DNA of 64,000 nt from an uncultured Ignavibacteria bacterium (GTDB lineage: Bacteria; Zixibacteria; MSB-5A5; CAIYYT01), in NCBI GenBank assembly GCA_964520555.1, contig CAZFNN010000001.1:393761-457760 (forward strand). Direction: 5' to 3'. This document shows, piece by piece, positions 3,947 through 58,108 of this stretch. The first letter of the stretch is position 1. Each line of letters starts with the position of its first letter. Under the pieces are notes generated by a model, which was not told the origin of the DNA, made no database searches, and was given only the letters and a program-made list of their open reading frames with translations. The translations under genes and the position numbers were made by a program.

Positions 3947-4169
3947 AAGGTCGACTCCTCTACAATGGCCAAAGTGCGTCGTCAATCCGTTCTGGATTTG
4001 GGGTGTAGAAAGGTAGTATACGCTCCTTGCCGGAGCAACGTTTTTTCCGTTTCCGCAGTGCAGCGTTTCACGGGCAAGCGCAAATCTGATTGCCCAACTG
4101 CTCGAGGCATTGTAGTTTGCTTGATGTCGGGACTGAACACCGGCACCATCCGTCTGGGCAGGGTACTAC

Positions 4170-40497: not shown

Positions 40498-42104
40498 AAC
40501 GCTGTATCGAATCCGAAGTGAACCATTAGTTTATCAAATTGTTTTGATTCCCCCAACGTGAAATCGAGTCGGAACCACCCCAGCGATGTCCGCAGCGAAG
40601 TCCCCGCGCCGAATCCGGTGAGACGCAACTCATCCGAGGCCATCCGCAGCCAGCCGTTGTCGCAAAACACGCGCAGGATCGCGTCATCGCCCGCGAGATA
40701 CTGCAGTTCGGTCGCCCCAACCGCGCCTTCCCGCGCCAGGAACGCCTTCTCGCGATACCCCCGTAGCGTCGCCACGCCGCCAATCTCCAAAAACTGCTCG
40801 AGTGGAATCGGCGCGAAGTCGGACTTGACCTGAAACAACAAACCGTGTTGGTACAGCATGAACCCGCCGCCCACCGCCAGCCAGCCCGACCCGTCAATCA
40901 CCAGCCGCGTCGAATAACCGGTCCTTACGCCGTCGCCTTCTGCAAACGACTTGCGATACGCGGTTGCGAATTCGGTGCTGACGCGCACCGCACTCGCGCG
41001 CACGGCAGCCGGATCGCGGCCGTCATAGGCCGTCGTCAGGGCCGCCTCCACAATTCGCGCCGACGGCGCCGCCCGCCCCACATCCGGCGTGATCTTGTGC
41101 CAGCTCAAGCGGGCGCCGAGCAGCCAGTCGAGATCGAGATGATAGTCGATCAGAAGCGCCGCCCGCGTGCTCACGAAGTTCGAGTCGCGATCGACCTGCG
41201 CCGCGGCGATACCAACGTCAAACTCCGTTCCACCGACATACGGCAGCCCCGCCGTTAGCGCCAGCTCGCGCGACGCGGCATTGCGGCGCGACCACTTCCA
41301 GCCGACCCGCTCGCCATACCCCAGCACATTGAGGAGTTCCAGGTTAGCTTGCCCCGCCGGCTTGTTTTCCGGATCGAGCGTCAAAACACCTTCCAACGCG
41401 AAATTCCGCCGCTCCCGCACCGGAAAGGCGATATCAGCGTGATTTCCATGCAGATCATGCGCGACCTGCGGCTCGCCTGCGCTCGCTATGAAGTCAAGCT
41501 TGCCCAGCGCCCTAACATCCGCCCGGACATTGCGCTCGCGGTACGGCGTTTCTGACTCCAAATCGACGCGGCGCAGCAACGTGTTCGGGCGGCTCGCGAC
41601 TGCACCCGGAAAACTGATCTTGCCGACCGGCAGCCGCGGACCGGCTATCGCCGAAAACCGCAACTGCGCCCGTCCCTGCGCAATCGCAATCTCGACCAGT
41701 TGAATGCTGGCAAATGGATAGCCCGAATCCGCATACGCCGCGGCCGCCCGCAAGCCAATTCTCTCAATCAGCGCTGCCGATAGCGGCTGGTTCTTGCCGA
41801 ATCCGTCCAATCGCAGATATGCCGAATCGATTCCGTTGATGATCGCGTCGCTCAGACGATAGCGCCTGCCTTCGTCAATCACGACGACGCTATCCTCTGC
41901 GCCGCTCAACTCGACTTCTGCTTCGAAAAAGCCTGCCTCGGTGTAGTTCGCCGCAATTGCGCCCAGCAGTGCTTCTGCATTCGCCGCACGCGCCGCCAAT
42001 TCCCCGAGCGCCCGCGCATCCAAGTGGTGATTCCCCGTGAACCGCAGCCCGCTCGCGGTCGCGGTCAGCACCAGGACCAGTGAGATGGTTCCAAGCGTCC
42101 TCAT
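40494..42104 (-). CDS. POTRA-domain Omp85-superfamily outer-membrane protein (BamA/TamA/TpsB-like)
   Basis: After the signal peptide come POTRA-like repeats (…LRFTGNHHLDARALGELAA…, …ISFPGAVASRPNTLLRRVD…), then a C-terminal beta-barrel region of about 300 aa. I placed the start at ATG 42104, which overlaps the upstream gene's stop in an ATGA arrangement. The track ORF extends to 42170. Confidence 0.55.
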   Translation of the reverse strand: MRTLGTISLVLVLTATASGLRFTGNHHLDARALGELAARAANAEALLGAIAANYTEAGFFEAEVELSGAEDSVVVIDEGRRYRLSDAIINGIDSAYLRLDGFGKNQPLSAALIERIGLRAAAAYADSGYPFASIQLVEIAIAQGRAQLRFSAIAGPRLPVGKISFPGAVASRPNTLLRRVDLESETPYRERNVRADVRALGKLDFIASAGEPQVAHDLHGNHADIAFPVRERRNFALEGVLTLDPENKPAGQANLELLNVLGYGERVGWKWSRRNAASRELALTAGLPYVGGTEFDVGIAAAQVDRDSNFVSTRAALLIDYHLDLDWLLGARLSWHKITPDVGRAAPSARIVEAALTTAYDGRDPAAVRASAVRVSTEFATAYRKSFAEGDGVRTGYSTRLVIDGSGWLAVGGGFMLYQHGLLFQVKSDFAPIPLEQFLEIGGVATLRGYREKAFLAREGAVGATELQYLAGDDAILRVFCDNGWLRMASDELRLTGFGAGTSLRTSLGWFRLDFTLGESKQFDKLMVHFGFDTAL

Positions 42105-45100: not shown

Positions 45101-45394
45101 TAAGGCCGTCACCGAATCGCACCCAACCCTACCCTTCAGCAAACACACACGATCTTCGTTTACCACATAATCAGTCCCGGCGCGCAACGTATCGCCGCAG
45201 GCAATGATTGACCGCAGCGTCTCGCCGGCGCCGACTGGCAGACAATCGCCGGCGCTGAGCGCGATTTTGCGCTCGCTGATTAATCCGGAACGGTCTTGAG
45301 CAATGAGGGAAAAAGCGCAGATGAAGATGAGGCTGATTACCGGCCCGATCCGCGCGGCTCGGCAATGATCACGGCAGGGCTGCCGCGATTTCAT
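42101..45394 (-). CDS. Large (1097 aa) beta-rich hypothetical outer-membrane-associated protein, translationally coupled to the Omp85-like gene
   Basis: Hydrophobic N-terminal signal/anchor (VISLIFICAFSLIAQ). It is dominated by alternating aromatic/charged beta-strand patterns (…YRV…YLYL…YQF…), with Gly/Asp-rich segments. I recognise no family. Confidence 0.45.
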   Translation of the reverse strand: MKSRQPCRDHCRAARIGPVISLIFICAFSLIAQDRSGLISERKIALSAGDCLPVGAGETLRSIIACGDTLRAGTDYVVNEDRVCLLKGRVGCDSVTALLGRDYSLIGRTFALREYGTTSARAQVPTPQTPNTGAPPRSQSKLKVSGSKSFYADVSDRGHSNLSQGLTMSVTGEIAPGVLVRGSFSDRGLRDNRLVTRRFSELENVFLEMESPRLHSVFGSFALRRDRFRFLTLERRVQGLEWEYRQQRVKTEASVSVPQGNFLDNQFTTEDGNYGPYRLRDRSGNAGIAVVENSDVVWLNGVKLQRGRDQDYYIDYLRGELFFTGRRVLDTGDRVRVELEFQRLEYRKTMFTSGAQLTGSDSANMLAFGYAGVIGARNDPLDFDLTEGDIAALTAAGDDPAAAVVSGAVLVGAGAGDYRVETDSVGVVRYEYVGEGNGDYRVTFSETDGGDYLYLGSGRYQFVGAGLGQYAPIRRLPLAEAAQVVAGAGSIALNSSLSLTGELAYSNYDRNRFSARDDHDNAQAAGFGQLEYRQRNRVVTAKVAGEYLPAQFYRFSRMDQVDDDYVWQRSSSRQRDRNRYDATVTLRPDSTLTGELLGGITREGAEFRSERAGLRFSSSGRLNLATNVAIDAAAAEEDGLERKLIRIKPDVRTVRLPVMLLARGEYDQRRSQTDGSAAMTLSKREIEAGGEYGGVTLTGRLRENWENRGRWHLLDSKQSVMMQAARVLGGQRRINATASANRYHSGAARQDYQTGMVDVLAPGVAGGIDLTANYRLNRRGVSQSNQTYLKVDAGEGDYVLIDSVYVPQARGDYILVAEAVGTTAPSVDAEKRLALEVRLDKFFRSVVTSGVSARYEINDREIGDADADFAWEWLLPPKQFFDNAEKYSQRSDNYRLQRYDRGIGLRTEVSYTRNRDVNRLDLAHPGRRDSEELRAGLNKAVAEQGVATAAMIGRNRTWRESGRLNLFLRERRIEFGGTRYAGRFEYVLNVALARERADSLELESVSWRIAPGLNCNLGTKGRIEAAIFGLQVSEKEDRRVLLQMAEGFPTGMHYGGRIKVDIKLSETFVFKVLGNCELREGEPNRYFLRSELVSRFE

Positions 45395-46310
45395 AAATCA
45401 CGATGCGATTGTTGCCGGTGTCGCATACGAAAATCTTCCCGTCGGCCCGCACTGCCAGTCCCGTCGGACTGGAGAAATTCAGCCCGCCGCTGCCGGCGCT
45501 GCCTGTCGCCGCGATCACGCTCCCGTCGCGCCCCAGCACCACCAGTTCGTTGCGCTCCTTGTCGGTGGCGATCAATTGCTCCGCCTGCGGCTCGAAGTCG
45601 CCCAACTCGCCGACCCCGGACAGCTCGATCTTGCCGTCCGGATTGCCGAAACCGTCGAAGATGTAAATCGTGTTGCGGTCGCGGTCGTAGACGTAAACGT
45701 CGCCCGCGGCCGCCAGTCGGATCAGCGCGCAGTGGGCAAACCCGCCCGCCGGAAACAACTCCTGTTGGCGCGCATAATCCTTGTCGAGGACAATCACCTT
45801 GAGATTGTCCGGATCAACCAGGTACATATTGCCGAACCGCGAGTACGCCAGCGCGGCGATCTTACCGAGCAGTTGCAGGTCGGGATTGTAATTGAAGCGC
45901 AATTCGTCCGAGAAGATCAGATTGTAGTCGGATCGCACGATGCGGCTGTTGCCCTGATCGAGGATGAAGAAATTGACCCCGCCGTCGGACGCCAGTGCCA
46001 CCGGATTGTTCAATCCGGTCAAGCCGAGTCCGTAACCGCCGTTTTCCTGAATGAACCCGTAGTCGGAACCGAGTTTGACGACGCGGTTATTGCCACGATC
46101 GAGGATGTACAAATTGTTGCTGATGTCGAAGACGATGGCGTTCGGAGCGGAAAATTCGCTGCTGCCGAAGCGGCCCTTGATCTCGCCAAGATAGTTCAAC
46201 CGCATCGCTGGCGGTGGCGCGATCGTCTCAACCGTCTGGCGCGCGGCGCAGGAACACAGCACGACGGCGACGGCCATCATCGTCCCCGCTGTCCACGCTG
46301 TGCGCCACAC
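45369..46310 (-). CDS. NHL-repeat beta-propeller lipoprotein
   Basis: Lipobox VVLCSCAA. Repeated NHL motifs (YILDRGNNRVVKL, FFILDQGNSRIVR, YLVDPDNLKVIVL, YVYDRDRNTIYIF, FVCDTGNNRIVIY). Confidence 0.7.
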   Translation of the reverse strand: MWRTAWTAGTMMAVAVVLCSCAARQTVETIAPPPAMRLNYLGEIKGRFGSSEFSAPNAIVFDISNNLYILDRGNNRVVKLGSDYGFIQENGGYGLGLTGLNNPVALASDGGVNFFILDQGNSRIVRSDYNLIFSDELRFNYNPDLQLLGKIAALAYSRFGNMYLVDPDNLKVIVLDKDYARQQELFPAGGFAHCALIRLAAAGDVYVYDRDRNTIYIFDGFGNPDGKIELSGVGELGDFEPQAEQLIATDKERNELVVLGRDGSVIAATGSAGSGGLNFSSPTGLAVRADGKIFVCDTGNNRIVIYEIAAALP

Positions 46311-46314
46311 GCAA

Positions 46315-47055
46315 TCAGAACCTCGCGCTTAAAGTCACCAACCAGCCGTCTGCCGTCGGCTGCAGTTCGATGCCCGAAAAGCCGGACTCAATCCCGCGAT
46401 TATGGCGGGTCGTGCTCCAGTAGGCATCCACCGCCGAAAGAAAGTGATTCGCGATCAGAAACCCAAGCGCAAAATCGGCGTTGCGGTAAAACGACTTGCT
46501 GTCATTCTTGAGGTCGCGGTACCGGCTGCGCGCGCTGTCCGAACTCCAACGCCAGAAATAAGCCTCGGTATCGGGATAATACTCGCGCTGCGGATCGAAG
46601 GCGCCGCCGACCTTGTTGTATTCCTCGCGTGAAGTGTAGAAACCGACCACGTCGAAAAAACGTTCGTCCTTGCCATCTACATCCGCGCCCGCCTCGCGCG
46701 CCGCCAGCAGCCGATAGTCGTCCTCGCGCCACTTGCCAAGATGCTTGAACGAGATCAGACTCGCCCAGCCGCCCAACTCGGCCGCCATAAAGATCCGCGA
46801 CTTGGTCGTCGAACCGACATACAACTCACCGGCCCCGGGCAGGACCAGCGACATCAAAAACGCCTGCCACGGCTTCTTGCGCATTTTGCCGGCATCCGGC
46901 TTGACTTCGCTGAATCCCTCGCCTTGCTCCACCTGGTATTGGATCGTCGGCTCGGGATCGATCGCTAACGGCGAGCGTTCCAGCGCGATCTGGGCTATTG
47001 CCGCCGGCGCCAACAATAGCGCCAACGCGAATATCAGAATCGTCGGCCGCATCAT
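46315..47055 (-). CDS. Small secreted/outer-membrane protein, paralog B (DUF5683-like PGAGxLY motif)
   Basis: 246 aa. Signal peptide, …FLMSLVLPGAGELYVGSTTKSRIFMAAELGGWA…, C-terminal …LVTLSARF. Clearly paralogous to the next gene upstream. Confidence 0.45.
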   Translation of the reverse strand: MMRPTILIFALALLLAPAAIAQIALERSPLAIDPEPTIQYQVEQGEGFSEVKPDAGKMRKKPWQAFLMSLVLPGAGELYVGSTTKSRIFMAAELGGWASLISFKHLGKWREDDYRLLAAREAGADVDGKDERFFDVVGFYTSREEYNKVGGAFDPQREYYPDTEAYFWRWSSDSARSRYRDLKNDSKSFYRNADFALGFLIANHFLSAVDAYWSTTRHNRGIESGFSGIELQPTADGWLVTLSARF

Positions 47056-47918
47056 CAGAACTTGTAGGTAAACACCAGTTTCGGAATCTGCTGCCCCTCG
47101 TAACGCGCCAGCCGCGCTTTCAGCGAAAACTCGCTGAAACTATCCTGCTGGCGATTGTAGCGCCGCGCCGACAAGGCCGCGTCGAATGCCGAGAGCAGAT
47201 GGTTGGCGATCGCGACGATCGCCCCCAGCTTGGCCCGGTCAAAATTCGTATTCGCTTTGTCGCGGTCGACCAGGTACTTGCCGCGAAACGTCGAAGTCGA
47301 GTCCTTGGTGCGGTAATCGGTGTCGACCCAGCCGTAGTTGAACTGGTCGTACTTGCCGATCATCTCGTAATATTGCTGCGTCTTGGTTTCGGGCAGATGG
47401 TGCGTGAATGTCGCCTCGTCGCGCACCGACTCCATCGTGTCCGAGGTGATCCCGTGCTCTTCGATCAGCCAGTTCGCGTAGCGCTCCGGGTCCCAGTAAC
47501 GGTCGGCATAACTCTTGTTGTCGTCTTCCTGATTGACACCCTTGCTGTGATAAACGTAGTAGCCGGTCCAGGCCAGCGCTTCGACCCCCATAAACATGAA
47601 CGCCTTGGTCCGCGAGCCGGTATAAAGCTGCCCGGCGCCGGGAATCGATAACGAATACAGGAAGCCCTTGCCCGGCGACTTGTAGTTCACGTCGAAGATG
47701 TCCGACGTCATCGGAAAGTCCTCGAAGCCCGATGCGGCAACGCCAAATGTGGTCAGCTGCTGCATGCGCTGATAGCTTTTCAGGTCACGTTCCGCCTGCG
47801 CCTGACTCAATGCACCGACCGTTAGCTTCGTCGGCGTTTCCGCCAGCGCCGCTACCGCCAGCAGTAGAATCAACGCGGCCGAGAAGTACTTCATCATCAG
47901 TCTATCCTCCAAATCCAC
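47055..47918 (-). CDS. Small secreted/outer-membrane protein, paralog A (DUF5683-like PGAGxLY motif)
   Basis: 287 aa. Signal peptide, …FLYSLSIPGAGQLYTGSRTKAFMFMGVEALAWTG…, C-terminal …LVFTYKF. It shares its stop/start nucleotide with paralog B. Confidence 0.45.
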   Translation of the reverse strand: MDLEDRLMMKYFSAALILLLAVAALAETPTKLTVGALSQAQAERDLKSYQRMQQLTTFGVAASGFEDFPMTSDIFDVNYKSPGKGFLYSLSIPGAGQLYTGSRTKAFMFMGVEALAWTGYYVYHSKGVNQEDDNKSYADRYWDPERYANWLIEEHGITSDTMESVRDEATFTHHLPETKTQQYYEMIGKYDQFNYGWVDTDYRTKDSTSTFRGKYLVDRDKANTNFDRAKLGAIVAIANHLLSAFDAALSARRYNRQQDSFSEFSLKARLARYEGQQIPKLVFTYKF

Positions 47919-47921
47919 ATA

Positions 47922-50900
47922 TTATTTCACTATCGCTACCGAGCAGTGCTTGCGCTCGCCGCCGCTCGTTTCTAATTGGCAGAAGTATACTCCCGAAGCC
48001 AGCCGGGAGGTGTCCAGATCGAGTTCGTTGTCAACGCCGGCCGTGCCGGATATCGATGACTCCAACACCAGATCGCCGGCGGTGTTGTATAGCCGCAGCG
48101 ATACCGGCCCCGTCTCACGCAACGTAAACCGGATCGTTGTCGACTCGCGCGCTGGGTTCGGATAGTTGTACACGTAGCCGATCGCGTCGCTCGGATGCTG
48201 CACCGCCGGCAGGCTGCGAATATAGCTGCCGCCATTGGCCCCGCCGCCGTATAACGCGTTCCAGTCGGTGTCGCGTGGCCGCGCCAGCGTAAAGGCCGCA
48301 ATCTCGCCCTCGCGCGTCAACGCCATCACGGCGCCGCTATTCGCGTTCTTCGCAATCGCCAGGGGCAACTCAATATTGCCGCCCGCCGCCCGGGGGAAGT
48401 TCGTCAGACGATGCCCAACGTGGTCAAATCCGGCCACTTCCCCATTCTTGGTACCGACAAACAACTCCATCACCCCGTCGCCGTCCAAATCGACCAGCGC
48501 CGGCGCCGACCGCACCGGCCCGACCGGGTAGGCGCCATTGACGATCAGCGGGAAATTGTCCACCGCCGTTCCGTTCCAGTTGTAAGCATAGATCCGGTTG
48601 TCGCCCCCGAACACGATGTCGACATAGCCGTCATTGTCGATGTCCCCCAGCGCGATCTCGGAAAACACCGACCCGCCAACCTCCACGGTAAACGGTTGAC
48701 CGGCGTAATTGATGCGCAACGTCCCATTCAAGTAAACTTCGACGGTCTCGAACGTGCCGTTGCGGTCGAAGTCCGCCGCTGCTGCGCCGCGCAAGTCGGC
48801 CGCGTTGGCGCCGGCGCGCATCCCGCCCACCGGCGACACCAGCTCAAACCGGTGCAGCGAGTCAGTCATCACCCGGAACGGCCAGACCGCTTCTTCATTC
48901 GTCAGAATCAGCCCGTCCCCGGCTAACACGATCCGTCGGTTGGTCATCGTATAGACCAGAATTTCCTTGCCCGCATTGTTCGGATCGACGTCGGCGATGA
49001 TCGGCGCGATTGCCAGCGGCTCGTCGATAAAGGTCTCAAACCGCTTGACCGCTTCGCCGCTGTACGTCAACGTTCGCGAGTTGAACGCGGCGACCGTAAA
49101 CCGGCTGGTGCCGGAGATGACTTCGGCAAAACCGTCACCGTCCAAATCGCCGATCGCCAGCGGCATGACGAACTCGCGATCGGACGCCACCCGCCCGAAC
49201 ACGCCCAGCGTATCCTGCGCCATCCGGGCGCCGTCGTACGTCTGCCGGTCGACAACCACCTCCGTGCCGGGAATCGGCTGGAACAGCGATCCGCCGCTCA
49301 ACCGGTACGCCAGAATGTAGTTGTCGACACTGGTTAGAATCTCTTCTTCACCATCATTGTTCAGGTCATATACGCGCAGTGCCGATGCCCCGCGCCCGAT
49401 AAAATTCGGCCAGTTCGCCGCCTTGCCCTCAGTACGGATATCGCAGTTCATCGTCGCCACCGCCGCCGAAATATCGCCGATGGTGATCCCCGTGTACGCG
49501 CCGCTCGCCGCCGCCGAATTCGGATTCGTGAACGGCCCCAGCTCGCGGTTGTTGTTGATGTCGAAATAATCCTTGGCGCTGCCGTAGCCGGCAAAATACT
49601 CGCGCCCGAATTGCACCAGCCCATCCGCCTCCATCAGCGTTAAGAACTGATGCCGATTGTCCCACTGCCGCGGATCGGACCGGAAGTTGAACCATTGCAG
49701 ATCGTTGTCATCGAAATTGTTGAATCCGTCACCGTCGTAGTCCAGCCGCGCCACCAATTCATCGACCCGCCAGATCACCATCCCGGTTCCCGGCGTCAGA
49801 TAATCGTACTCCCGCGTGTTCGGCCCGTTCTTCTCGCGCACCGGCCGCAGAAACACGCCGGTGTTCTCATCCTGCTGGATGCCGGTCAATCCGTCGCCGT
49901 CCAAGTCCGTGCGGCGATACTCGATCAGAAAGTACTCGTCGGCATTGATCGGCACGCGAATGATCTGTTGCTCGTCCGTCAGCTTCTCCGCCGGCGCAAT
50001 CTGCACGTTGGCGCCGCTGCTGACCGTCACCACGTCGACGAATCCCAGATACGCGCGCGACCAGGCATCGGGAAATATCGGCATCACCCCCTGCACCAGC
50101 ACCAGCACCTCTTCGCCGAAATCGATATTGACCCCGAATCCGTTGTTGTCCATCAGCGAGAAATCACCCACTGCCGTATTGAATGTTCGCGAGTCGTAAA
50201 GATCGACCAAACCCAGTTGGTGCCCGAACTCGTGCGCCATTACCGCATTCAACGCCGTCACCCGGCCGTCCTGGCACACTGTTTCCGGCATCACCATCCC
50301 GTCCACGATCACCGCCGAGTCGTTCTGCACGAAAATCGGCGCTCCCAACTTGAGATAACCGGTAAACAGATCCCCCGGCGTCGGCTGCCCGAAGTTCGGA
50401 AGGTTGTTCTGCTGATCCGAGCCCGGATGAAACACCACGAAGGCGTCATACAACGGCGCGCCGGTCACCGCATCAGTGAAGCGCAACTCCAGATCGCGAT
50501 CCGCCGCCGCAAAAGCATCGGCGTAGAATTCCGTCAATCCGAACTCCGGCGGCTGCAGCCCGTAATACGCCATCGTCGAATCTAAATCGTACGCCGCCTC
50601 TTCTTCCCGCGGATAGATGTCGAACGTCAGCGTCAGCCGGCCGTTCGAAACCACCTCGTAATATTCCTTCAGCGCCTGCAGGTGCGCGAGAAAATACGCG
50701 TTGTTGTGCGGCGCCGGATCGATCGTGTGCCCTTCCTGCGCCGCAAAATCTTCGCGCGTCCGCAGGTCAAAGGTGCCGTTGCCGGTAGTACGCGAATCGT
50801 CCGGCACTTCCTTGCGAAACTGCGCTTTGATCGCCAGAATCCGAATCACCCGCTGCTCGGTCGCCGCCAGCGCCTGGCGCGGCAACGCATATTTGCTCTC

Positions 50901-51062
50901 GCGCTCCAGACCGAGCAAGTTGCGCTCGGAGGCCCCGTGACTCATCCCGCCGCGTGGCGCAATTTCCGCCGGCTTCTTGCCCTTGATCGGCAGGTAATTC
51001 GCCCTGGCGCCACTCAGCGCCGTCGCTACTATCAGGAAAGTGTACAGCAGTATCCGCGTCAT
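47922..51062 (-). CDS. M6-family (immune inhibitor A-like) zinc metalloprotease with FG-GAP/VCBS-like repeats and T9SS C-terminal sorting domain
   Basis: HEFGHQLGLVDLYD zinc-binding motif. Repeated DxDxDG Ca-binding beta-propeller loops (DLDGDGFAEV, DIDNDGYVDIV, DLDGDGVMELFVG). The C-terminus …YVYNYPNPARESTTIRFTL…VSLRLYNTAGDLV…GVYFCQLETSGGERKHCSVAIVK is a T9SS CTD. Signal peptide present. Confidence 0.7.
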   Translation of the reverse strand: MTRILLYTFLIVATALSGARANYLPIKGKKPAEIAPRGGMSHGASERNLLGLERESKYALPRQALAATEQRVIRILAIKAQFRKEVPDDSRTTGNGTFDLRTREDFAAQEGHTIDPAPHNNAYFLAHLQALKEYYEVVSNGRLTLTFDIYPREEEAAYDLDSTMAYYGLQPPEFGLTEFYADAFAAADRDLELRFTDAVTGAPLYDAFVVFHPGSDQQNNLPNFGQPTPGDLFTGYLKLGAPIFVQNDSAVIVDGMVMPETVCQDGRVTALNAVMAHEFGHQLGLVDLYDSRTFNTAVGDFSLMDNNGFGVNIDFGEEVLVLVQGVMPIFPDAWSRAYLGFVDVVTVSSGANVQIAPAEKLTDEQQIIRVPINADEYFLIEYRRTDLDGDGLTGIQQDENTGVFLRPVREKNGPNTREYDYLTPGTGMVIWRVDELVARLDYDGDGFNNFDDNDLQWFNFRSDPRQWDNRHQFLTLMEADGLVQFGREYFAGYGSAKDYFDINNNRELGPFTNPNSAAASGAYTGITIGDISAAVATMNCDIRTEGKAANWPNFIGRGASALRVYDLNNDGEEEILTSVDNYILAYRLSGGSLFQPIPGTEVVVDRQTYDGARMAQDTLGVFGRVASDREFVMPLAIGDLDGDGFAEVISGTSRFTVAAFNSRTLTYSGEAVKRFETFIDEPLAIAPIIADVDPNNAGKEILVYTMTNRRIVLAGDGLILTNEEAVWPFRVMTDSLHRFELVSPVGGMRAGANAADLRGAAAADFDRNGTFETVEVYLNGTLRINYAGQPFTVEVGGSVFSEIALGDIDNDGYVDIVFGGDNRIYAYNWNGTAVDNFPLIVNGAYPVGPVRSAPALVDLDGDGVMELFVGTKNGEVAGFDHVGHRLTNFPRAAGGNIELPLAIAKNANSGAVMALTREGEIAAFTLARPRDTDWNALYGGGANGGSYIRSLPAVQHPSDAIGYVYNYPNPARESTTIRFTLRETGPVSLRLYNTAGDLVLESSISGTAGVDNELDLDTSRLASGVYFCQLETSGGERKHCSVAIVK

Positions 51063-51075: not shown

Positions 51076-54000
51076 TTATAGTTTTACCGTCAGTGAGGTG
51101 CGCAGCGTGTTGGCTAGCGGCAGATTCTCGGAGGACGGAATATACGCAAAGTCCAGCCGGTACCGGCCCTTGTACTGCAATCCGACGCCGACCGTCGGCG
51201 TCTTCACTTCACCTTCCTGGTCATAGATGTATCCCGCCCGCAGCGCCAGCAGCGAACCGTACCAGTACTCGATACCGACATTCTCGATCGCTTCCTTGAA
51301 TTCCGTCGAAAAATCGTCATTCACTGTCGCCAGCAGCTTGTTGATCTCGCCGACCACCGTCAAACGGTTGTAGGGCGAATCGAGCAGCTTGTACGAAAAG
51401 CCGACCGCCAGGTTGCGCGGCAGCGCGTCCGACTGCGCTGCGTCGATGTAGCTCATGTTCGGACCCAGGTTGGTCAGCACCGCGCCGAAGCGCAGCTTCT
51501 TGGTGGCCGCGTACAGCAACCCACCTTCCACGGCAAACGAGGTGCCCGATCCCTCGCCGACTTCGCGGCCGGCACCTTGCACCGACAACCGGCTGTAGAT
51601 GATCTTCGCCGACAAGCCGACCGCCAGCGACTTCGAGGCGCGCGTGCCGTACGACAGCGTCACCGCCACGTCGAACGGATTGATCTCGCCCGTGATCTCG
51701 GATGAGGTCTCGCCCGTCACCGGGATCGTACCGTACGAGAGGAACGTCACGTTGCCGCCGATCGTGCCGAGTGTGCCGATCGGTTGCACGTAGCTGAGAA
51801 ATTCGTAATACAGGTCGTTCGCCAATTCCGGCAGCCAGTTGGCGTGCGTAAACGTCAACTCGGTCTTGCCCTGCGCGAATACCACCACGCGATCAGCCGT
51901 GGCAAACCACATCTCGCCGCTCTGGCCGACAATGTCGCGCGTGTTGCTCTGGTGCAGATCTTCGTGATAGTAGCGCTCCCATTGCCCGTCGTCGTGCGTG
52001 AAGGTGCCGTAGATCGAACCGACGTAGAGCTTCCCGCCCTGCGAGTAGAGCGCATTGATCGTGCTGCCGGCGGGATTCGCGTAGACATAAACCACGCGGC
52101 CGATCTGCAGGTTGCCGGTCTGCAGCGTGTTCTTCTGCTTGAGAATCTGCACGAAGCTGCTGATCTTGTCCTGGTCGGTCGTCTTCAGGTACTCCTGCGC
52201 CAGCTCCTCGATCGTCATCGGCCGCTCGACCTTGATCGCTTTGTAGCCGAAACTCGTCCAGGCCTTGCCGTCAAACTTCTTCAATCCCAACTCGGTGCCG
52301 ACCCACAAGTCGTTGCCGTGCATCTCCAGCGCCGTGATCTGGCCTTCAAAAACCGGCTTGTACGGCAGCCGCAGCGCAACTCCCGCCTTCGGCGTATTGA
52401 AAAACTCCGGATTCCCCGCCTGGATCTGCGCAATCTGCAGCTCCAGCCGCACGGCGTCGATCGTTCCGTAGAACTTCGTTAGCACCGTCAGCGCCGAGTC
52501 GTTGACGGACGTCGTATAGTTCACCTGATTCGACCAGGTCGTCCCGTCCCAACCGAACAGATCATCCTCGCTGGCCGCCCACGCCAGTCGGTCGCTCTTC
52601 ACAAAAATGTTCTTGATCGGTCCGGCGGTCAGCCCTTCAGCCGCTCCATATACCGTCCACTTACCGTCGCGCAGGACGCGCACGCCGGTATCGGTGCCAA
52701 CCCAGATCTGCCCGCGCCTGAACACCTCGATGCACCACACCGCCGTCGAGTCGCCGCCGGTCGAGTACTTCTCCCAACTGCGCCCGTTGTAACGGTACAG
52801 CCCGGTGGTGGTGCCGACGTACAACATCTTGTGGTCGACGCCGATGTCGAGAATCTCCCCCTCAAACACCGCGTTGAACGGAAACTGCAGATCATTGGGC
52901 AGCCGATCGCGATACGATTTCTCCAGCGCAAACATCAGGCGGTCAGCTTCCGCCTCGCTGACGGTCGAATCGGCCAACGCCTTGTTGGCCGTCTCGACGA
53001 ACGCCGCCATCCGCAAATCATCGAGACGGCAGCCGGTCCAGTTCTCTTCGAGCTTGCCCAAACTCTTGACAAATTCTTCGCGGCTGTCGAATTGCTCCGG
53101 CAGTCCGGCCTCGATCCGCGTCCGCAGCTCCACCAGCCGTTCCAGCGGGAAGCGGTTGTTCGTCCGCGCCACCTGATCGAGACGCGGCAGCACCACTTCG
53201 TCCTTCGCCGTCCCCAGCGCCCGCGCCACGATATCTTTCAAATTGTCACCCCGCCGCGGCTGAATGATATCGCCCGTGATCCAGGTCGCGCCGTTGTACC
53301 GCATCAACCCGCGGTTGGTCAACGCCCAGACGTCATAATGCGTGTAATTGTCGTTGGGAACGCCGTTCTCCATCACGGCAATCTTTTGAATCCGCTGCTC
53401 CCAGGGCACATTCCACCCGCGCCAGACGCTCAGCAGCACCGCATACGGAACCTGAATTTCGCCCGGCCGCGTTTGCGTCTCGCATGCCGTCGCGAGCGAC
53501 TCAATCTCGGTCAGTTCCTCGTCCGCCAACTGCACGTCGGCAGCCACGTCGGCGGCGCGCTGCTTCAAGGTGTTGAACGCTTCAATATTCAGCCGCAAAT
53601 CCTGCCAGTACATCAGCAGATTTTCCGCCAGCGCGTTGATGCGATCGACGCTCGTCTTGCCGCCGATCTTCAGCAGACTGGTGCGGATGCCGTTGATCTC
53701 GTCAAACGATACACCGGTATTGGCGAAACAGATCTTGCGCACCGCCTGCTTGAAGCGTTCCTTGTCGGCGGAGGCCAGCCGCCGCGATAACGTCGCCAGC
53801 AGCGTGCGGTTCGGATCGATGCTGATTGTCTCGTACTCGGACCATTCCTCGCCGTCGAGACGGCTGATCGCGTTCCCCTTCACCTGCCACGCCTGGATCT
53901 TCTCGTAAAACTCCGGCGCCAACTTGCCGTCAAACGCCTGCTGCGCCAGTTCCTTCAGCCGCGAATCGTCGCCCAGACTAAACTGGTACCAGGCATGCGC

Positions 54001-54243
54001 TAACGGATACTCGCCCAGTCCGGCGGGATTCCAATGCGTCGACGACGCGTCGTCGGCAATCGCCACAAACGCCTCACCCATCCCGGCGCTGCGGGCGTTC
54101 GGCGCAATGCGCAGAAACAGCACCGCCGCGTCGCTGATCTGGGCGTACGACGTCCGCGTCCCGAACAGCAACGATGATCCGATCAGCAAGATGATCAGCA
54201 AGAATCTTCTCATTCCACTCTCCTTCATATCGCAAGCAAACAT
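51076..54243 (-). CDS. porV: PorV/PorQ-like T9SS outer-membrane beta-barrel protein carrying a roughly 550-aa inserted beta-propeller (two-component-regulator-propeller/Y_Y_Y-type repeats)
   Basis: After the signal peptide, …AAVLFLRIAPNARSAGMGEAFVAIADDASSTHWNPAGL… matches the conserved PorV/LptO N-terminal strand. The C-terminal roughly 330 aa are beta-barrel-like and end …GRYRLDFAYIPSSENLPLANTLRTSLTVKL. The middle contains repeated …LWVGTELGLKKFDGKAWTSF…, …LYVGTTTGLYRYNGRSWEKYS…, …IWVGTDTGVRVLRDGKWTVYG…. It is adjacent to the PorU-like gene. Confidence 0.5.
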   Translation of the reverse strand: MFACDMKESGMRRFLLIILLIGSSLLFGTRTSYAQISDAAVLFLRIAPNARSAGMGEAFVAIADDASSTHWNPAGLGEYPLAHAWYQFSLGDDSRLKELAQQAFDGKLAPEFYEKIQAWQVKGNAISRLDGEEWSEYETISIDPNRTLLATLSRRLASADKERFKQAVRKICFANTGVSFDEINGIRTSLLKIGGKTSVDRINALAENLLMYWQDLRLNIEAFNTLKQRAADVAADVQLADEELTEIESLATACETQTRPGEIQVPYAVLLSVWRGWNVPWEQRIQKIAVMENGVPNDNYTHYDVWALTNRGLMRYNGATWITGDIIQPRRGDNLKDIVARALGTAKDEVVLPRLDQVARTNNRFPLERLVELRTRIEAGLPEQFDSREEFVKSLGKLEENWTGCRLDDLRMAAFVETANKALADSTVSEAEADRLMFALEKSYRDRLPNDLQFPFNAVFEGEILDIGVDHKMLYVGTTTGLYRYNGRSWEKYSTGGDSTAVWCIEVFRRGQIWVGTDTGVRVLRDGKWTVYGAAEGLTAGPIKNIFVKSDRLAWAASEDDLFGWDGTTWSNQVNYTTSVNDSALTVLTKFYGTIDAVRLELQIAQIQAGNPEFFNTPKAGVALRLPYKPVFEGQITALEMHGNDLWVGTELGLKKFDGKAWTSFGYKAIKVERPMTIEELAQEYLKTTDQDKISSFVQILKQKNTLQTGNLQIGRVVYVYANPAGSTINALYSQGGKLYVGSIYGTFTHDDGQWERYYHEDLHQSNTRDIVGQSGEMWFATADRVVVFAQGKTELTFTHANWLPELANDLYYEFLSYVQPIGTLGTIGGNVTFLSYGTIPVTGETSSEITGEINPFDVAVTLSYGTRASKSLAVGLSAKIIYSRLSVQGAGREVGEGSGTSFAVEGGLLYAATKKLRFGAVLTNLGPNMSYIDAAQSDALPRNLAVGFSYKLLDSPYNRLTVVGEINKLLATVNDDFSTEFKEAIENVGIEYWYGSLLALRAGYIYDQEGEVKTPTVGVGLQYKGRYRLDFAYIPSSENLPLANTLRTSLTVKL

Positions 54244-54247
54244 TCTA

Positions 54248-57200
54248 CTACTTCAGAACCACCAACTTGCCGGTGGCAACCGCTTTACTATTATCGTCAC
54301 CGGAGGCCCCGGCACTTGCTGCTCGAGCCGATAACTGGAACAGATACACCCCGTTAGCCGGCCGGTCACCGTCGTCATCCCGCCCGTCCCAGGCGATCCC
54401 CTGGTGCGCGCCGCGGCTCGCCGGCAACCCCGTTTTCGACCAGATTTCCAGCCCCGACAACGTAAACAGTTTCAAAATGACATGGTCGGCGTCTGCCGAC
54501 AAGACATAGCTGAATTCGCACGCTTCGGCCACCGGATTCGGATAGCACAAAAGTTCGGTTATTTCGATGCCGGCGGCGGCATTAACGTTAAAATCAACCG
54601 TCGCCAGGCTCGAGTTATTCGCCGAATCCCATGCCTTGACCTTCAATTGGTGCGGCCCGTCCTCCAGAACCGGCAAAACTAACGTCGCCTCGCCGCGCTG
54701 GTAGCTGTCGGCGTTGTAAGTGAAACTGTCAGTCACCTCGAAAGCGAATTCGGGCCGCTCGTCGATCGTCAGCTCGATTCCATGCCCGATCTCGCCGGTC
54801 AGATTGATCCCCAGCGAATCGTACAACTCCACGGTCACTTCCGTGTTCTGCTTGAGCGTGGCCCCGTTCGACAACTGCGGATTGCCGGCGAAATAGACGC
54901 TCACCGTCGGGCCGGTCGAATCCACCGTCTCCTTGTTGATACTACCGATCGCAATCGGATAAATCACTCCGGCGGCGCCGCTGGTGGCCGAGGCCGCATA
55001 GCCGCTGATCCGCGCTTCCTGCCCGCCATAGCTGATATCCTTCGGCACGACAAATTTGAGATTGAAGTCGCCGTCCCGCACCGCCACGCGCCCGCGATAG
55101 ATCTCCGGGCCGTACTCCGCGTACGATACCGTAAACGGTGGAATCACAAATGTCCGCGTCCGCTGGTTGTCAAACACGCTGATCGTCGCTTCGCCGTCAA
55201 AGTCGCTCTGCTTGACGCCATCTTTGTCTTGGATCTCGCCCGCCAGATCGGTGACCGTCAACGCCACCAGCGAATCGGGGGCGAACGTAACAAAATCGAT
55301 TTGGTTCGGCGCCAGCGCCAGCCGCGACAGCGGATCACCCATGTAAATATATTTCCGGTCGTTGTCGCCCACTCCGGCCACTCCCTGCCGCAGCAGCTTG
55401 GTCACGTAGACCGCCTCGGCAATCGTGTAGTTCTTGTCGCTCAATAGCTGCGTCATCCCCGCCTTGTTAAACTCGAAATTCGGCCGCGAATACACCAGCC
55501 GCGTCGCCGAGATCGTTCCGACCGCACCACCGTTGGCATACCGCAGCAAATCCTCCGCCATCCCTTCCGACTGCGGATTGTCGAAGAATCCAATCGAGCA
55601 GGAGGCGTTGAAGATCAGCGGCAGCCGCGCCGCATTGTTCAGCCGCGGAATATCCTGCACCCGCCGGAAAATGCGTTCGTCCGCCCAGAGGTTCTGGTTG
55701 CCATGGCCGGTATAATTGACGATCAGCCGTCCGGCGTTGATCGCGCGGATGATCGCCTCCCGCATCTCCGGCTTCTCCGAGGCTGCGCCGAGCGGATAGG
55801 CAATCCCGTAAATCTTGTCCAGAACGAATCCCGGCGGAATTATCGTTCCCGCCAGCACCTCGGTATCCTGCGTGTGAAACACCTCCGGCAAGGTCGACTG
55901 CGGGTGCTTCTCGTCATCAGCGATCAACGTGATAATGTTCCGCCAGTTACCCGCGTCCGCGGCCTCGTCATACGCCTTGATCTTTGCCGCCACCGTCTCA
56001 AACTCCGCTGCCGTCTTGACCGCCCAGCGCGCGATCACCATGTCCACCCCGCGATCGCTCGGATACGAATCGTCGGCATCCAGATCGTACAGCGAATCCA
56101 GGTAGACGAAATTCTCATCCGACACTGTCTCGTCGCCGGCCACGATGTACGGCGGGACATAGTTCACGCCACCGGTGCCCAGATTGTTGCGGAAATCATA
56201 CACGCCATCCCCGGCCAACAGGCAGTATGACGGCCGCGCACCGCTCCAATGCTCGTGCGTGTAGCGCAGAAAATCCCGAATCGCTACCGGATCAACCCGG
56301 CCGCCCGAGAACTGCGCGTAAACATCGGAGATCCGCACCACGCGCACTCGCAAACCGTCGCGTGTCTGCCGGTATGCCGCGTAGTCGACGGCATTTGCAT
56401 AGAAGTTGTCGTGCGTGATGATGATAAAGTCCGCTTGGTTGCTCTCCGCCCGGATATCGTCAACCTGCGTCGCCACGATCGCAAACGGTGTCTTCAGCGC
56501 CGCCAGGTTGCTCACGGCCAGTACCGGCTGCACTTCCGCGCTCGCGTCCTGGTCAATATACAGGTCGTTACCGTCCACCTGCACCGGCGCCACTAAAACC
56601 GGCGCCTGGACATCTGCGACATCAACAACAATCGGTGTGTCGAAACTTCCCGCGATGCGGTACGCATGCGCGTTCCCGTCGCGCCGGCCGAAAAAGTGCA
56701 GTTGCCCCGACGCCGGCAGGTTCAAATCACGCTCTAACTCAACTTCCAGGAAGTCCGTGTAGCCGTCATTGAACGCGTAATCGATACTGAATTGATTCAA
56801 CCCGTTCGTGAGCCGATTACTCGTGTAGTAGTGCACCAACCCGACACTCGAATCGCGCGGGATGTCAAAATTATTCAGCTTCAAATTGAAAGTCTGTCGC
56901 GTCGTCTTAATCCTAAACCGATTCACTGACTGCGGTGCTGGTTGCGGCAAGTTGACAAAAAGCGTCAAGTCGCCCGCCAGCCCCCAATACCAGTTGTAGT
57001 AGTCGAAAACATCATCCCCCGATTGCGAAAATTGCGCCTCTTCTTCGAAATGCAAATAATCGATCGTCCGGCTTACCGTGTCGATTACATCATCGCGATC
57101 CCCGGACACCGTTCCCATTCGCTTCGCCGGTTCGGGGAACGAGCCGCCAATCGCCAGGTAATACACGTTGCGGTCGCTGTACGGATGCCGCACATACGCC

Positions 57201-58108
57201 GGCCCCGCCTGCGACTCCCAGAAATCGCCGCCGTCGCCGTAAAACATCACATAGTCGTCGTTGCCAAAATTGCCGTCCGCCTCGCCCGCCACCACAATCG
57301 CAACCTCCATGATTGAATCGCGCGGCGCCGCGTTCGACACCGGCAGCGGCTTGCCGCCGGCAGAAAACAACCGCAGCGTCCGCGGGTCGACCCCGTTTAT
57401 ACTCGCTCCTGCGTTCGTCAAATCACTGCGCGTGATCTTGTACAAGCCGCTCTCGGTTACGGCGATTCGCACCCACGATCCGCTCAGCGCGAACGGATTA
57501 TATACTGCCGCGCCGGCGCTTCTTAGCAGCGGCTGCGTCCATGCCGCCGCCTGTTCGGCGTTCACGGCCAACTCATCCAACAACCGGTCCAGCGGGCCCG
57601 CCGCGCGCACCTCACGCAGTTCCGGCTCGCTTCCGAATGCCAACTCGATCTCTGCCGCCGTCACTTCGTGGTACGCGCCGCCGCGCTGCGCTTCGACCGG
57701 AACCACAACCTTGCCAACCCAACGCCCACGAATTAATACCGGCGCAACGACGGACACTTCCGCCACACTCTCGGCAACGGTGTTCTCTACCGATCGCAAC
57801 GCCTTGTTGCCAACGGTGACATTGGCTGAGACCAAGCTTGAATTATTGCGATTGGGGGAGTAGAAGCAGATGACGTAGGCCTCCCGCGCGCTGCCGTCGG
57901 CCGCGGCGATCGAAGTCCTTTCTGCGGTCACGACCCGGCTCACCCCTGCTGCGGCCGCGTCCATTTGCCCGTCGGCAGCCAGACGCAGACTCAAGCCCTG
58001 AGCGCTGCTGCGGACGACCGCAACCTTGGCCTCGTAGGCTTCGCTACTGCTGTAAAGGGAAAGAACTGCGCAGAAAATAAGAGCGGTGAAACGACGGGAA
58101 AATGTCAT
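54248..58108 (-). CDS. porU: Peptidase C25 (gingipain-family) cysteine protease with T9SS CTD; PorU-like (T9SS C-terminal signal peptidase) candidate
   Basis: 1286 aa. Signal peptide. The C25 catalytic dyad context is …LIVNYTGHGNQNLW… (His) and …PLIFNASCSIGFFD… (Cys). The C-terminal …CYPNPVAEACEFSYVLS…ILKLFTLSGLEIWS…GVYLFQLSARAA…GKLVVLK is a T9SS CTD. Its position immediately upstream of the PorV-like gene mirrors porU-porV synteny in Bacteroidetes. Confidence 0.55.
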   Translation of the reverse strand: MTFSRRFTALIFCAVLSLYSSSEAYEAKVAVVRSSAQGLSLRLAADGQMDAAAAGVSRVVTAERTSIAAADGSAREAYVICFYSPNRNNSSLVSANVTVGNKALRSVENTVAESVAEVSVVAPVLIRGRWVGKVVVPVEAQRGGAYHEVTAAEIELAFGSEPELREVRAAGPLDRLLDELAVNAEQAAAWTQPLLRSAGAAVYNPFALSGSWVRIAVTESGLYKITRSDLTNAGASINGVDPRTLRLFSAGGKPLPVSNAAPRDSIMEVAIVVAGEADGNFGNDDYVMFYGDGGDFWESQAGPAYVRHPYSDRNVYYLAIGGSFPEPAKRMGTVSGDRDDVIDTVSRTIDYLHFEEEAQFSQSGDDVFDYYNWYWGLAGDLTLFVNLPQPAPQSVNRFRIKTTRQTFNLKLNNFDIPRDSSVGLVHYYTSNRLTNGLNQFSIDYAFNDGYTDFLEVELERDLNLPASGQLHFFGRRDGNAHAYRIAGSFDTPIVVDVADVQAPVLVAPVQVDGNDLYIDQDASAEVQPVLAVSNLAALKTPFAIVATQVDDIRAESNQADFIIITHDNFYANAVDYAAYRQTRDGLRVRVVRISDVYAQFSGGRVDPVAIRDFLRYTHEHWSGARPSYCLLAGDGVYDFRNNLGTGGVNYVPPYIVAGDETVSDENFVYLDSLYDLDADDSYPSDRGVDMVIARWAVKTAAEFETVAAKIKAYDEAADAGNWRNIITLIADDEKHPQSTLPEVFHTQDTEVLAGTIIPPGFVLDKIYGIAYPLGAASEKPEMREAIIRAINAGRLIVNYTGHGNQNLWADERIFRRVQDIPRLNNAARLPLIFNASCSIGFFDNPQSEGMAEDLLRYANGGAVGTISATRLVYSRPNFEFNKAGMTQLLSDKNYTIAEAVYVTKLLRQGVAGVGDNDRKYIYMGDPLSRLALAPNQIDFVTFAPDSLVALTVTDLAGEIQDKDGVKQSDFDGEATISVFDNQRTRTFVIPPFTVSYAEYGPEIYRGRVAVRDGDFNLKFVVPKDISYGGQEARISGYAASATSGAAGVIYPIAIGSINKETVDSTGPTVSVYFAGNPQLSNGATLKQNTEVTVELYDSLGINLTGEIGHGIELTIDERPEFAFEVTDSFTYNADSYQRGEATLVLPVLEDGPHQLKVKAWDSANNSSLATVDFNVNAAAGIEITELLCYPNPVAEACEFSYVLSADADHVILKLFTLSGLEIWSKTGLPASRGAHQGIAWDGRDDDGDRPANGVYLFQLSARAASAGASGDDNSKAVATGKLVVLK

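Follow-up and report, generated by a model that had tools for sequence, protein, structure and literature searches.

The C25 peptidase gene and its downstream neighbour are the PorU sortase and the PorV carrier of a T9SS attachment operon, and the carrier adds ~715 residues between its plug motif and barrel strand 1, where a Reg_prop-type β-propeller forms a folded, predicted periplasmic module. This long PorV is best read as a carrier whose own periplasmic module would serve as a foot that binds glycan or peptidoglycan, or as a coupling handle. Knowledge of the T9SS comes almost wholly from Bacteroidota, in which PorV (LptO; FjPorV in the SprA translocon, 6h3i_F and 8gl6_F) is in contrast a simple barrel whose periplasmic turns are all short. 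The earlier note on this DNA had taken a PorV with a built-in propeller to be uncharacterised, and indeed no description of a PorV form with a periplasmic propeller module was found in the searchable literature. The genes lie in a 64,000-nucleotide stretch of DNA (the window) from a Zixibacteria-like genome, and both open reading frames were confirmed on the minus strand. The genes of the cluster are:

54248..58108, minus strand, porU, T9SS sortase of 1286 aa
51076..54243, minus strand, long porV, 1055-aa carrier barrel of the PorV family with ~715 inserted residues
47922..51062, minus strand, M6-like metalloprotease with FG-GAP propeller and T9SS type-A CTD, HEFGH at aa 277
47055..47918, minus strand, small exported protein of 287 aa, paralogue of its 246-aa neighbour
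46315..47055, minus strand, small exported protein of 246 aa, DUF5683 (PF18935, 28.5 bits)
45369..46310, minus strand, NHL-repeat protein (PF01436, E 5e-14), often next in the cluster

The upstream gene encodes a PorU-type sortase

The C25 protein matches the NCBIfam T9SS sortase PorU model NF033707 over residues 209-1284 with 710.4 bits (cutoff 420), and the solved P. gingivalis PorU structure 6za2 is recovered with an E-value of 1e-66. Its catalytic domain is defined by Pfam Peptidase_C25 (PF01364) with an E-value of 2e-83, and two regions of the chain are of interest:

55322-56428, minus strand, C25 catalytic domain of PorU (aa 561-929) with His802 and Cys837
54320-54517, minus strand, candidate Ig-like CTD of PorU (aa 1198-1263), FlgD_ig-like

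His802 (in NYTGHGN) and Cys837 (in NASCSIG) align with the catalytic dyad of the gingipain RgpB and of PorU, so that the protein has the His/Cys pair expected of family C25 (clan CD). The C25 domain is central, as in PorU, and not N-terminal, as in gingipains. This domain order, together with the NF033707 and 6za2 matches, identifies the protein as PorU and bears out the porU-porV synteny proposed earlier. At the C-terminus the FlgD_ig model scores 26.7 bits (cutoff 27) and TIGR04183 gives no match, while NF033707 is aligned to its last position, residue 1284. A spacing of 5 nt had been given for the two genes; their close adjacency holds, and the gap counted from the first porV ATG measures 4 nt. 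Homologues of the long PorV begin ~10 residues further in, at query M11, which is probably the true start (nt 54213) and would widen the gap to ~34 nt. Promoter and terminator counts between 44 and 60 kb of the window were not above those of shuffled sequence.

The long PorV holds a complete barrel interrupted at one point

Membership of the PorV/PorQ family, for which HMM searches had been suggested, was confirmed by both NF033709 (249.8 bits, cutoff 90, in two stretches) and PF19572 (85.7 bits, cutoff 27). The PorV equivalog model NF033710, whose match is split by the insertion, reaches 187.2 bits against a cutoff of 250, and the PorQ model scores lower still (74.7 bits, cutoff 220). In profile searches the N-terminal part corresponds to residues 1-63 of F. 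johnsoniae PorV (6h3i_F) and the C-terminal part to residues 68-395, which places the extra sequence at a single point of an otherwise complete PorV. The features of the protein, in order along the chain, are:

54010..54213, minus strand, signal peptide (aa 11-34) and N-terminal motif (aa 35-78, ...ARSAGMGEAFVAIADDASSTHWNPAGLG)
51865..54009, minus strand, insertion (aa 79-793), Reg_prop-type β-propeller with nested domains
53428..53994, minus strand, module 1 (aa 84-272), degenerate blade and helical bundle (helices at aa 148-252)
52888..53427, minus strand, module 2 (aa 273-452), first propeller blade (aa 285-327) and six-helix bundle (aa 335-443)
52363..52518, minus strand, LysM-like unit 1 (aa 576-627), nested between blades, with LysM matches in homologues
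52084..52236, minus strand, LysM-like unit 2 (aa 670-720), to which the LysM match of homologue P0059 maps
51079..51864, minus strand, complete PorV/FadL-type barrel (aa 794-1055), 14 strands, all after the insertion

The conserved motif of PorV/FadL type (GARxxGMGxAFxAxxDD...NPAG) occupies residues 49-75, before strand 1, and is invariant or nearly so across 68 homologues. In the predicted model, which has low confidence here (pLDDT 31-68), it is a plug-like segment and not a barrel strand. All 14 predicted strands start beyond residue 794, and turns of 3-4 residues alternate with longer loops. Thus, of the proposal that the N- and C-terminal segments form one barrel, the complete C-terminal barrel stands, while the N-terminal segment, earlier described as a conserved strand, supplies no strand to it. 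The insertion site is marked by the short PorV P0194, which reads NPAGLG-FLKGK-ELVLMHSKWFPQFADDMYYEFLSY and equals query residues 72-77 fused to 794-816.

The insertion is a Reg_prop-type propeller with nested domains

The large insertion described earlier is confirmed, although its length is ~715 residues (79-793) and not ~550. Two-component-regulator-propeller-type repeats were correctly recognised in it: seven [LIVM][WY]xx[TS] blade signatures stand at residues 305, 474, 513, 554, 646, 739 and 778, both the repeat signature and the propeller fold of Reg_prop (PF07494, the HTCS sensor type) are present, and the profile matches BT4663-type sensors with an E-value of 5e-35. The insertion is a Reg_prop-type propeller of the HTCS-sensor/PorZ superfamily. 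The PorZ side of this superfamily is seen in homologue P0081, which exceeds the PorZ_N_b_propeller cutoff (PF21544, 30.2 against 27 bits), in a faint PorZ match of the query itself and in a match to the PorZ structure 5m11 at only E 0.011. The PorZ model NF052228 gives 11.7 bits (cutoff 260) for the long PorV, which has a single propeller and no CTD. In comparison with the Bacteroides HTCS sensors BT4663 (4a2l), BT4673 (3ott/3va6) and BT3049 (3v9f), the query has one propeller rather than two and lacks the Y_Y_Y domain, the transmembrane helix and the kinase; its propeller instead carries nested LysM-like and helical domains and sits inside an outer-membrane barrel protein.

Modules 1 and 2 are tandem duplicates (hhalign probability 99.35%, E 6e-21, 177 columns). 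Since pairwise BLASTP between them gave no significant match (E 13), it was the profile-profile comparison that settled the duplication. Module 1 is confined, by length class, to a clade of ~1050-aa proteins. For the six-helix bundle no known relative was found; the helical bundles, which are the most lineage-specific part of the insertion, give no functional clue, a point against a wall-binding foot.

The two LysM-like units show a βααβ pattern in the predicted model (DSSP, residues 573-627 and 667-721). The columns of unit 1 coincide with Pfam LysM matches in P0056 (45.2 bits), P0063, P0093, P0114, P0040 and P0042, and seven homologues score 21.7-45.2 bits at query-equivalent columns (cutoff 20.9). 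Among the homologues listed, PF01476 is precomputed for 17 of 120. In unit 2, N705 and G715, both of them LysM hallmark residues, are conserved to at least 90% across the family. The query protein itself has no Pfam LysM match at E<0.1 and its units no longer carry the GDT motif (unit 1 has NDS), which suggests that peptidoglycan binding may be gone in this clade. Shorter, barrel-less matches in the representative search were considered as stand-alone inserts and rejected, as they begin with the first profile position or break off abruptly and look like contig-end fragments.

The module is predicted to face the periplasm

A link of 4 residues joins the end of the last propeller strand (residue 790) to the start of barrel strand 1 (residue 795). 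In the alignment, the turn that connects strands 6 and 7 falls on loop 193-199 of F. johnsoniae PorV, treated as periplasmic by Lauber et al. 2024 (PMC10994853), and strand 1 would thus begin on the periplasmic side. Strand parity, combined with the short link to the propeller, predicts that the insertion is periplasmic; this orientation, resting on parity and alignment, is inferred rather than measured. The module most likely hangs into the periplasm from the barrel mouth rather than lying on the cell surface, a strong inference. The extracellular propeller of the earlier note is thus not supported, and a cargo-docking role outside the cell becomes unlikely for a module predicted to be periplasmic.

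The same geometry bears on an extracellular, PorZ-like module that would dock cargo or offer PorU the anchoring glycolipid, and so amount to a PorV(Q)-PorZ fusion. The propeller does belong to the PorZ superfamily (the P0081 domain match, the faint query match and 5m11), no PorZ gene was seen in the operon, and PorZ has been modelled on BT4663-type sensors (PMC5121618). Both Reg_prop-like PorZ (P. gingivalis, 5m11; A-LPS-presenting) and the long PorV are parts of PorU/PorV attachment machinery. However, PorZ has two propellers and a CTD and sits on the cell surface, where a barrel of its own, PorQ, holds it, whereas the insertion is a single propeller without a CTD whose two ends both meet the barrel at the periplasmic mouth, as indicated by strand order, the 4-residue link and the FjPorV loop 193-199. 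The LysM units of outer-membrane proteins such as intimin are periplasmic, which also counts against a PorZ-like module, and this arrangement is most improbable.

A signalling role had also been suggested for the module, and is unsupported because the protein has no output domain. It might still take the regulatory form of a ligand-gated plug, in which the Reg_prop/LysM module would sense a periplasmic glycan (a muropeptide or lipid-linked sugar), move the plug and switch the state of the barrel. Its position directly after the FadL-type NPA plug motif would suit such a switch, and Reg_prop sensors change conformation on ligand binding according to passages of PMC5121618 that cite BT4663. With no output or signalling domain in the protein, and with movement of the PorV plug being structural speculation, this mechanism is very improbable.

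Conservation of the operon

The operon order is porU–porV–M6/FG-GAP cargo–two small proteins, and long PorVs occupy it in 76-79 Zixibacteria loci, as well as in Edwardsbacteria. PorU lies directly upstream of porV here and in 76 of 79 loci, and the M6-like cargo gene lies 3' of porV in 75 of 79, and also in loci L080 and L081. Both small proteins are found in the same order in 56 of 79 loci (tblastn), and the NHL-repeat gene in 38. Insertion-bearing PorV occurs in at least 78 Zixibacteria species genomes, with more diverged long forms in Chitinispirillaceae (Fibrobacterota) and Candidatus Edwardsbacteria. Whether orthologues share the insertion, a check proposed earlier, is thereby answered, as it is common to 78 genome loci. 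An ordinary 323-aa PorV stands in the same operon of a related lineage (GCA_012960585.1; loci L081 and L082), which makes the long protein a positional orthologue of PorV.

The M6/FG-GAP/CTD protein is, judged by its sequence, a T9SS cargo: TIGR04183 scores 36.6 bits (cutoff 23), and the best model is NF052323 with 305 bits, under its cutoff of 600. The gene row resembles the PorU2/PorV2/T9SS-dependent M6-like set (NF052324, NF052325, NF052323), in which a C25 sortase, a PorV-family barrel and an M6-like CTD protein also follow one another. However, all three query scores fall under the curated cutoffs, the query PorU is much closer to classical PorU (710 bits) than to PorU2 (152 bits), and HEFGH is intact in the query M6-like protein whereas the name of NF052323 says 'inactivated'.

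A CTD cargo gene that forms part of the operon (75/79 loci), and a predicted periplasmic module of ligand-binding type, would both accord with a periplasmic cargo receptor, its propeller capturing folded CTD substrates or their glycans and passing them to the translocon-docked barrel. Solved complexes nevertheless show the CTD on the extracellular PorV loops inside the SprA pore and not on the periplasmic face (PMC10994853), and the insertion bears no likeness to known CTD-binding surfaces, so that a receptor of this kind is quite improbable.

Proposed function of the periplasmic module

The seven-bladed propeller of the insertion is of a type that binds oligosaccharides, both in PorZ and in the hybrid two-component sensors of Bacteroides, and LysM is a peptidoglycan/GlcNAc-binding fold. 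Glycan or peptidoglycan binding by the insertion is accordingly put forward with moderate confidence, whereas a tethering or positioning role is suggested more weakly. In the preferred model the barrel would keep the usual PorV job, with its outer loops binding the cargo CTD and PorU anchored to it; binding of type-A CTD cargo, PorU binding and SprA/Sov docking are predicted roles of the long PorV. The module would act as a glycan-binding foot, probably on peptidoglycan, that positions or tethers PorV-PorU relative to the cell wall and to the periplasmic part of the secretion machine. The model as a whole, usual barrel plus tethering foot, is given an even chance of being right.

Bacteroidota supply such a role in trans, for example through PorE on the PorP barrel, SkpA at the base of PorV and the SprF or PorG link to GldK/PorK. 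PorE, a lipoprotein with a periplasmic propeller and a peptidoglycan-binding domain (PMC7192894), forms a complex with PorP, a PorV-like barrel (PMC9143113). SkpA touches PorV at its periplasmic base, and export slows when that PorV loop is deleted (PMC10994853); GldK is disulfide-linked to SprF and PorG (PMC12635249), and the PorKN ring lies below the attachment complexes (PMC12365241). PorE-PorP of P. gingivalis is the closest functional analogy, as it also joins a FadL/PorV-like 14-stranded barrel, a periplasmic β-propeller and a peptidoglycan-binding domain (PMC9143113, PMC7192894). PorE, however, is encoded apart from its barrel, as a lipoprotein made up of TPR, WD40-type propeller, CRD and OmpA_C domains, whereas the query is one polypeptide with a Reg_prop-type propeller and LysM-like units as putative wall-binding elements.

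Two further points sit uneasily with the foot model. Reg_prop propellers are known on the cell surface too, as in PorZ, and a wall-tethered PorV fits poorly with the shuttle model, in which lateral movement takes the carrier from the translocon to the attachment complex.

The module may otherwise be a force-coupling handle, gripped by a hub/track of PorK/N-GldK/N type or by a motor arm, which would drag PorV-cargo from the SprA lateral gate. The Bacteroidota counterpart is believed to depend on PorG or on covalent attachment of the carrier tail to GldK (PMC12635249, PMC12365241). The predicted periplasmic insertion lies exactly at the plug/strand-1 junction, where a pull could also shift the plug, and its helical bundles are conserved and even duplicated, as expected of a protein-protein interface. 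The LysM and Reg_prop folds, on the other hand, suggest glycan rather than protein partners. Cys405, found in 49 of 68 sequences, 18 of which have no other Cys, was considered as a disulfide link of PorV to a periplasmic track, as for SprF and PorG, and rejected; Leu or Met stands there throughout one clade, which makes the site look buried within a helix and not like a disulfide donor. Force coupling is considered unlikely.

A broader proposal, which we hold to be unlikely, is that in Zixibacteria, Edwardsbacteria and some Fibrobacterota PorV itself bears the periplasmic coupling device of the T9SS, replacing the trans-acting PorG/PorE/SkpA contacts. The propeller/LysM/helical-bundle handle between plug and strand 1 would then be held or pulled by the cell wall or a periplasmic hub. 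If true, it would offer a model in which a single polypeptide brings energy to the carrier-ejection step; for Bacteroidota the question is by what route the motor powers ejection of the carrier from the translocon. A large, conserved, predicted periplasmic module of glycan-binding type on a PorV orthologue in at least three non-Bacteroidota lineages points to the periplasmic face of the carrier as a functional surface, and makes the long PorV a natural construct in which to compare wall tethering with force coupling. Proteins of this type are at present annotated only as 'PorV/PorQ family protein', 'ligand-binding sensor domain-containing protein' or hypothetical.

The barrel protein is a complete PorV broken at one point

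The two genes at the head of the operon are:

54248..58108 (-), PorU sortase ORF, 1286 aa, matched by NF033707
51076..54243 (-), long PorV ORF, 1055 aa, matched by NF033709 in two pieces

The 1055-residue protein represents PorV in a PorU-PorV operon and carries a conserved folded insert with domains of the glycan-binding type. The PorV/PorQ family model NF033709 matches it in two separate pieces with 249.8 bits (cutoff 90), and score, motif, synteny and fold all bear out its membership of this family, which the earlier note proposed. Since its match falls into two pieces, the protein reaches only 187 bits with the strict PorV equivalog model, short of the cutoff of 250. In the profile built from 68 homologues, the N-terminus aligns with residues 1–63 of Flavobacterium johnsoniae PorV (FjPorV, 6h3i_F) and the C-terminus with residues 68–395; the protein is therefore a complete PorV broken at one point. 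The short relative P0194 (321 aa) reads ...WNPAGLG-FLKGK-ELVLMHSKWFPQFADDMYYEFLSY across the junction, equivalent to residues 72–77 of the long PorV joined straight to residues 794–816; FLKGK is the 5-residue linker of the short form. Thus, the insert comprises about 715 residues (79–793) and not the roughly 550 first estimated. Homologues start at M11 of the long PorV, so that the gene probably begins at nt 54213.

The NCBIfam PorU model NF033707 matches the upstream ORF with 710 bits over residues 209–1284 (cutoff 420), the Porphyromonas gingivalis PorU structure 6za2 matches it with an E-value of 1e-66, and the catalytic dyad His802 and Cys837 is retained. The Peptidase_C25 domain lies in the middle of the protein (residues 561–929) and not at the N-terminus, which rules out a gingipain-like domain order and upholds the original assignment as PorU-like.

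Distribution and origin of the long form

More than 120 homologues of 730–1057 aa with PF19572, mostly together with PF07494, came up in the protein search, the named ones being from Zixibacteria. Whether orthologues in related MAGs share the insert, a question left by the earlier note, is answered by a scan in which each species was represented by one genome: the long form was found at 78 loci, among them loci in RBG-1, the first genome of Zixibacteria, and on several complete chromosomes. Complete or near-complete genomes with the long form include LS998015.1, CP070839.1, CP070813.1, OY969724.1 and AUYT01000001.1. By tblastn at 79 loci the conserved order is porU (76/79, in agreement with the porU-porV synteny first proposed), long porV (79/79) and a gene for an M6-like/FG-GAP/CTD protein (75/79), followed further downstream by two small paralogous exported proteins (56/79 each) and an NHL-repeat protein (38/79). 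The corresponding downstream genes in the window are:

47922..51062 (-), M6-like/FG-GAP/CTD protein, 1046 aa, T9SS cargo with a type-A CTD
46315..47918 (-), pair of neighbouring small paralogues, 287 aa and 246 aa (DUF5683 match), conserved at 56 of 79 related loci

An exhaustive HMM search recovered more diverged long forms of 690–830 aa combining Reg_prop and PorV, some of them labelled Chitinispirillaceae/Fibrobacterota and Candidatus Edwardsbacteria; at the Edwardsbacteria locus the operon is the same. In most of these diverged forms, including P0184, P0187, P0192, P0199 and P0210, the insert begins with PLxxSW directly after NPAGLG, as in Zixibacteria, and this common start suggests a single ancient insertion event. 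A lineage with an ordinary PorV of 323 aa (GCA_012960585.1) has an identical operon (PorU, PorV, M6/FG-GAP/CTD protein, two small proteins), so the long protein is a positional orthologue of ordinary PorV and not an unrelated paralogue. The long form is a genuine PorV architecture, ancient and widely distributed, with an uncharacterised extra module. Database labels for these proteins are generic only, and the searchable literature yielded no paper on the T9SS in Zixibacteria or on a PorV into which a propeller or LysM is inserted, as the earlier note had supposed for the built-in propeller.

On a metagenome contig (locus L083, 10001..12136) two short PorV-family genes (321 and 323 aa) lie in tandem after PorU and could be a PorV/PorQ-like pair; the barrel of this lineage is very near that of the long form. 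Among the relatives' loci L002–L079, many MAGs with the Zixibacteria-type operon are labelled 'uncultured Ignavibacteria', one 'Terriglobales' and one 'FCB group', and one 90%-identity cluster of short PorV is labelled Zixibacteria, Gemmatimonadota and Latescibacteria at once. For MAGs with this operon, taxonomic labels cannot be relied on.

Anatomy of the barrel and the insert

The long PorV was modelled confidently with AlphaFold2 from a 68-sequence alignment (mean pLDDT 85.2, pTM 0.78). All 14 barrel strands lie C-terminal to the insert, at residues 795–1054, while the conserved N-terminal motif (residues 35–78), previously taken for a barrel strand, forms no strand in the model and is of low confidence.

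The insert is a Reg_prop-type propeller. The family profile matches the sensor domains of the Bacteroides hybrid two-component sensors BT4663, BT4673 and BT3049 with E-values of 5e-35 to 1e-23, and seven blade signatures occur at residues 305, 474, 513, 554, 646, 739 and 778, in keeping with the two-component-regulator-type repeats originally recognised. Extra units of two kinds are nested within the propeller. Two βααβ units occupy residues 576–627 and 670–720, and their columns correspond to above-threshold Pfam LysM matches in seven homologues; the units of the long PorV itself have diverged too far to give a Pfam LysM score, and the LysM-like units of its clade are degenerate. In P0056, a shorter form, LysM is intact. 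A 'blade + bundle' unit is tandemly duplicated in the clade of about 1050 aa, the window protein included; residues 84–272 align with 273–452 at an hhalign probability of 99.35% (E 6e-21). The first copy is absent from shorter members of about 860–950 aa, and members of about 730 aa have neither bundle. The insert includes a helical domain without known relatives.

The long PorV was also considered as a PorZ and rejected: the PorZ model gives only 11.7 bits versus 260, and the protein has a single propeller and no CTD.

Membrane side of the insert

The orientation of the insert was argued from topology, through strand parity and the FjPorV alignment. The connections between strands alternate in the model, six being of 3–4 residues and the other seven mostly longer (4–20), the pattern expected of turns in the periplasm and loops outside the cell. 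Residues 913–916, the turn that connects strands 6 and 7, align with FjPorV residues 192–199, where the loop 193–199 is taken as periplasmic (Lauber et al. 2024, PMC10994853). Counting five strands back from this turn, strand 1 starts on the periplasmic side. As the final propeller strand runs to residue 790 and strand 1 starts at 795, the insert has its C-terminal junction in the periplasm. Its junction on the N-terminal side lies at the same end of the barrel, because the plug motif just before it can exit the barrel only there. A periplasmic position of the module is thus predicted, with both junctions at the periplasmic mouth and the propeller on the same side as the C-terminus and the short turns, and not the extracellular one that the earlier note pictured. 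LysM units in outer-membrane proteins such as intimin are periplasmic, as are Reg_prop sensor domains, and both fit this placement. Propeller type alone does not decide the membrane side because of PorZ, and a PorZ-like role of the module at the surface is the less likely reading given the predicted topology.

Proposed role of the module

From analogy alone we infer that the barrel would keep the carrier and anchor role of PorV, while the module may bind a periplasmic glycan, most plausibly peptidoglycan, and so could tether PorV-PorU or fix its position with respect to the wall and the machinery of the periplasm. PorE, a lipoprotein with a periplasmic propeller and peptidoglycan binding, is complexed with the PorV-like barrel PorP (PMC7192894, PMC9143113); the base of PorV is contacted by SkpA (PMC10994853), GldK is disulfide-linked to SprF and PorG (PMC12635249), and the PorKN ring lies beneath the attachment complexes (PMC12365241). 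These Bacteroidota analogies are all trans-acting. The main rival reading, which is less probable, makes the module a dynamic handle, force through which would eject PorV with its cargo from the translocon; the position of the module between plug and strand 1 gives this reading its mechanical appeal. Roles as a periplasmic cargo receptor or a ligand-gated plug are less likely.

Cys405 of the long PorV, in the helical bundle (window 52888..53427 (-), motif WxxC[RL]LD), is of interest beside the SprF/PorG-GldK disulfides. It is kept in 49 of 68 homologues, in 18 of which it is the sole cysteine of the mature protein; one clade has Leu or Met instead. In the long PorV it is probably buried.

Other genes in the window

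The M6-like protein follows porV in Zixibacteria, Edwardsbacteria and the short-PorV lineage. Its HEFGH motif (residue 277) is intact, although the NCBIfam model that fits it best, with 305 bits against a cutoff of 600, bears the name 'M6-like inactivated metalloprotease'. Being a conserved propeller protein of the surface, encoded in the attachment operon, it could correspond in function to PorZ. Each of the 287-aa and 246-aa proteins combines a signal peptide with a PGAGxLY motif and ends in Phe; the literature searches found no papers on DUF5683. The remaining features are:

1652..3985 (-), OPT-family oligopeptide transporter, ordinary housekeeping transport
10962..16580 (-), 1872-aa protein with a C-terminal T9SS type-A sorting domain (TIGR04183, 30.2 bits versus cutoff 23)
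20644..23751 (-), AcrB-type RND pump, ordinary housekeeping transport (E 1.6e-276)
40494..45394 (-), 1097-aa protein followed by a 558-aa POTRA/ShlB-type (BamA/TamA-like) barrel protein

The 1872-aa protein is likely another cargo of the same T9SS. The 1097-aa protein has no family match, its match to SprA being faint (16.8 bits). Its gene overlaps the end of the NHL gene and is conserved in synteny among the closest relatives as well as in Edwardsbacteria, where the protein has 1126 aa.
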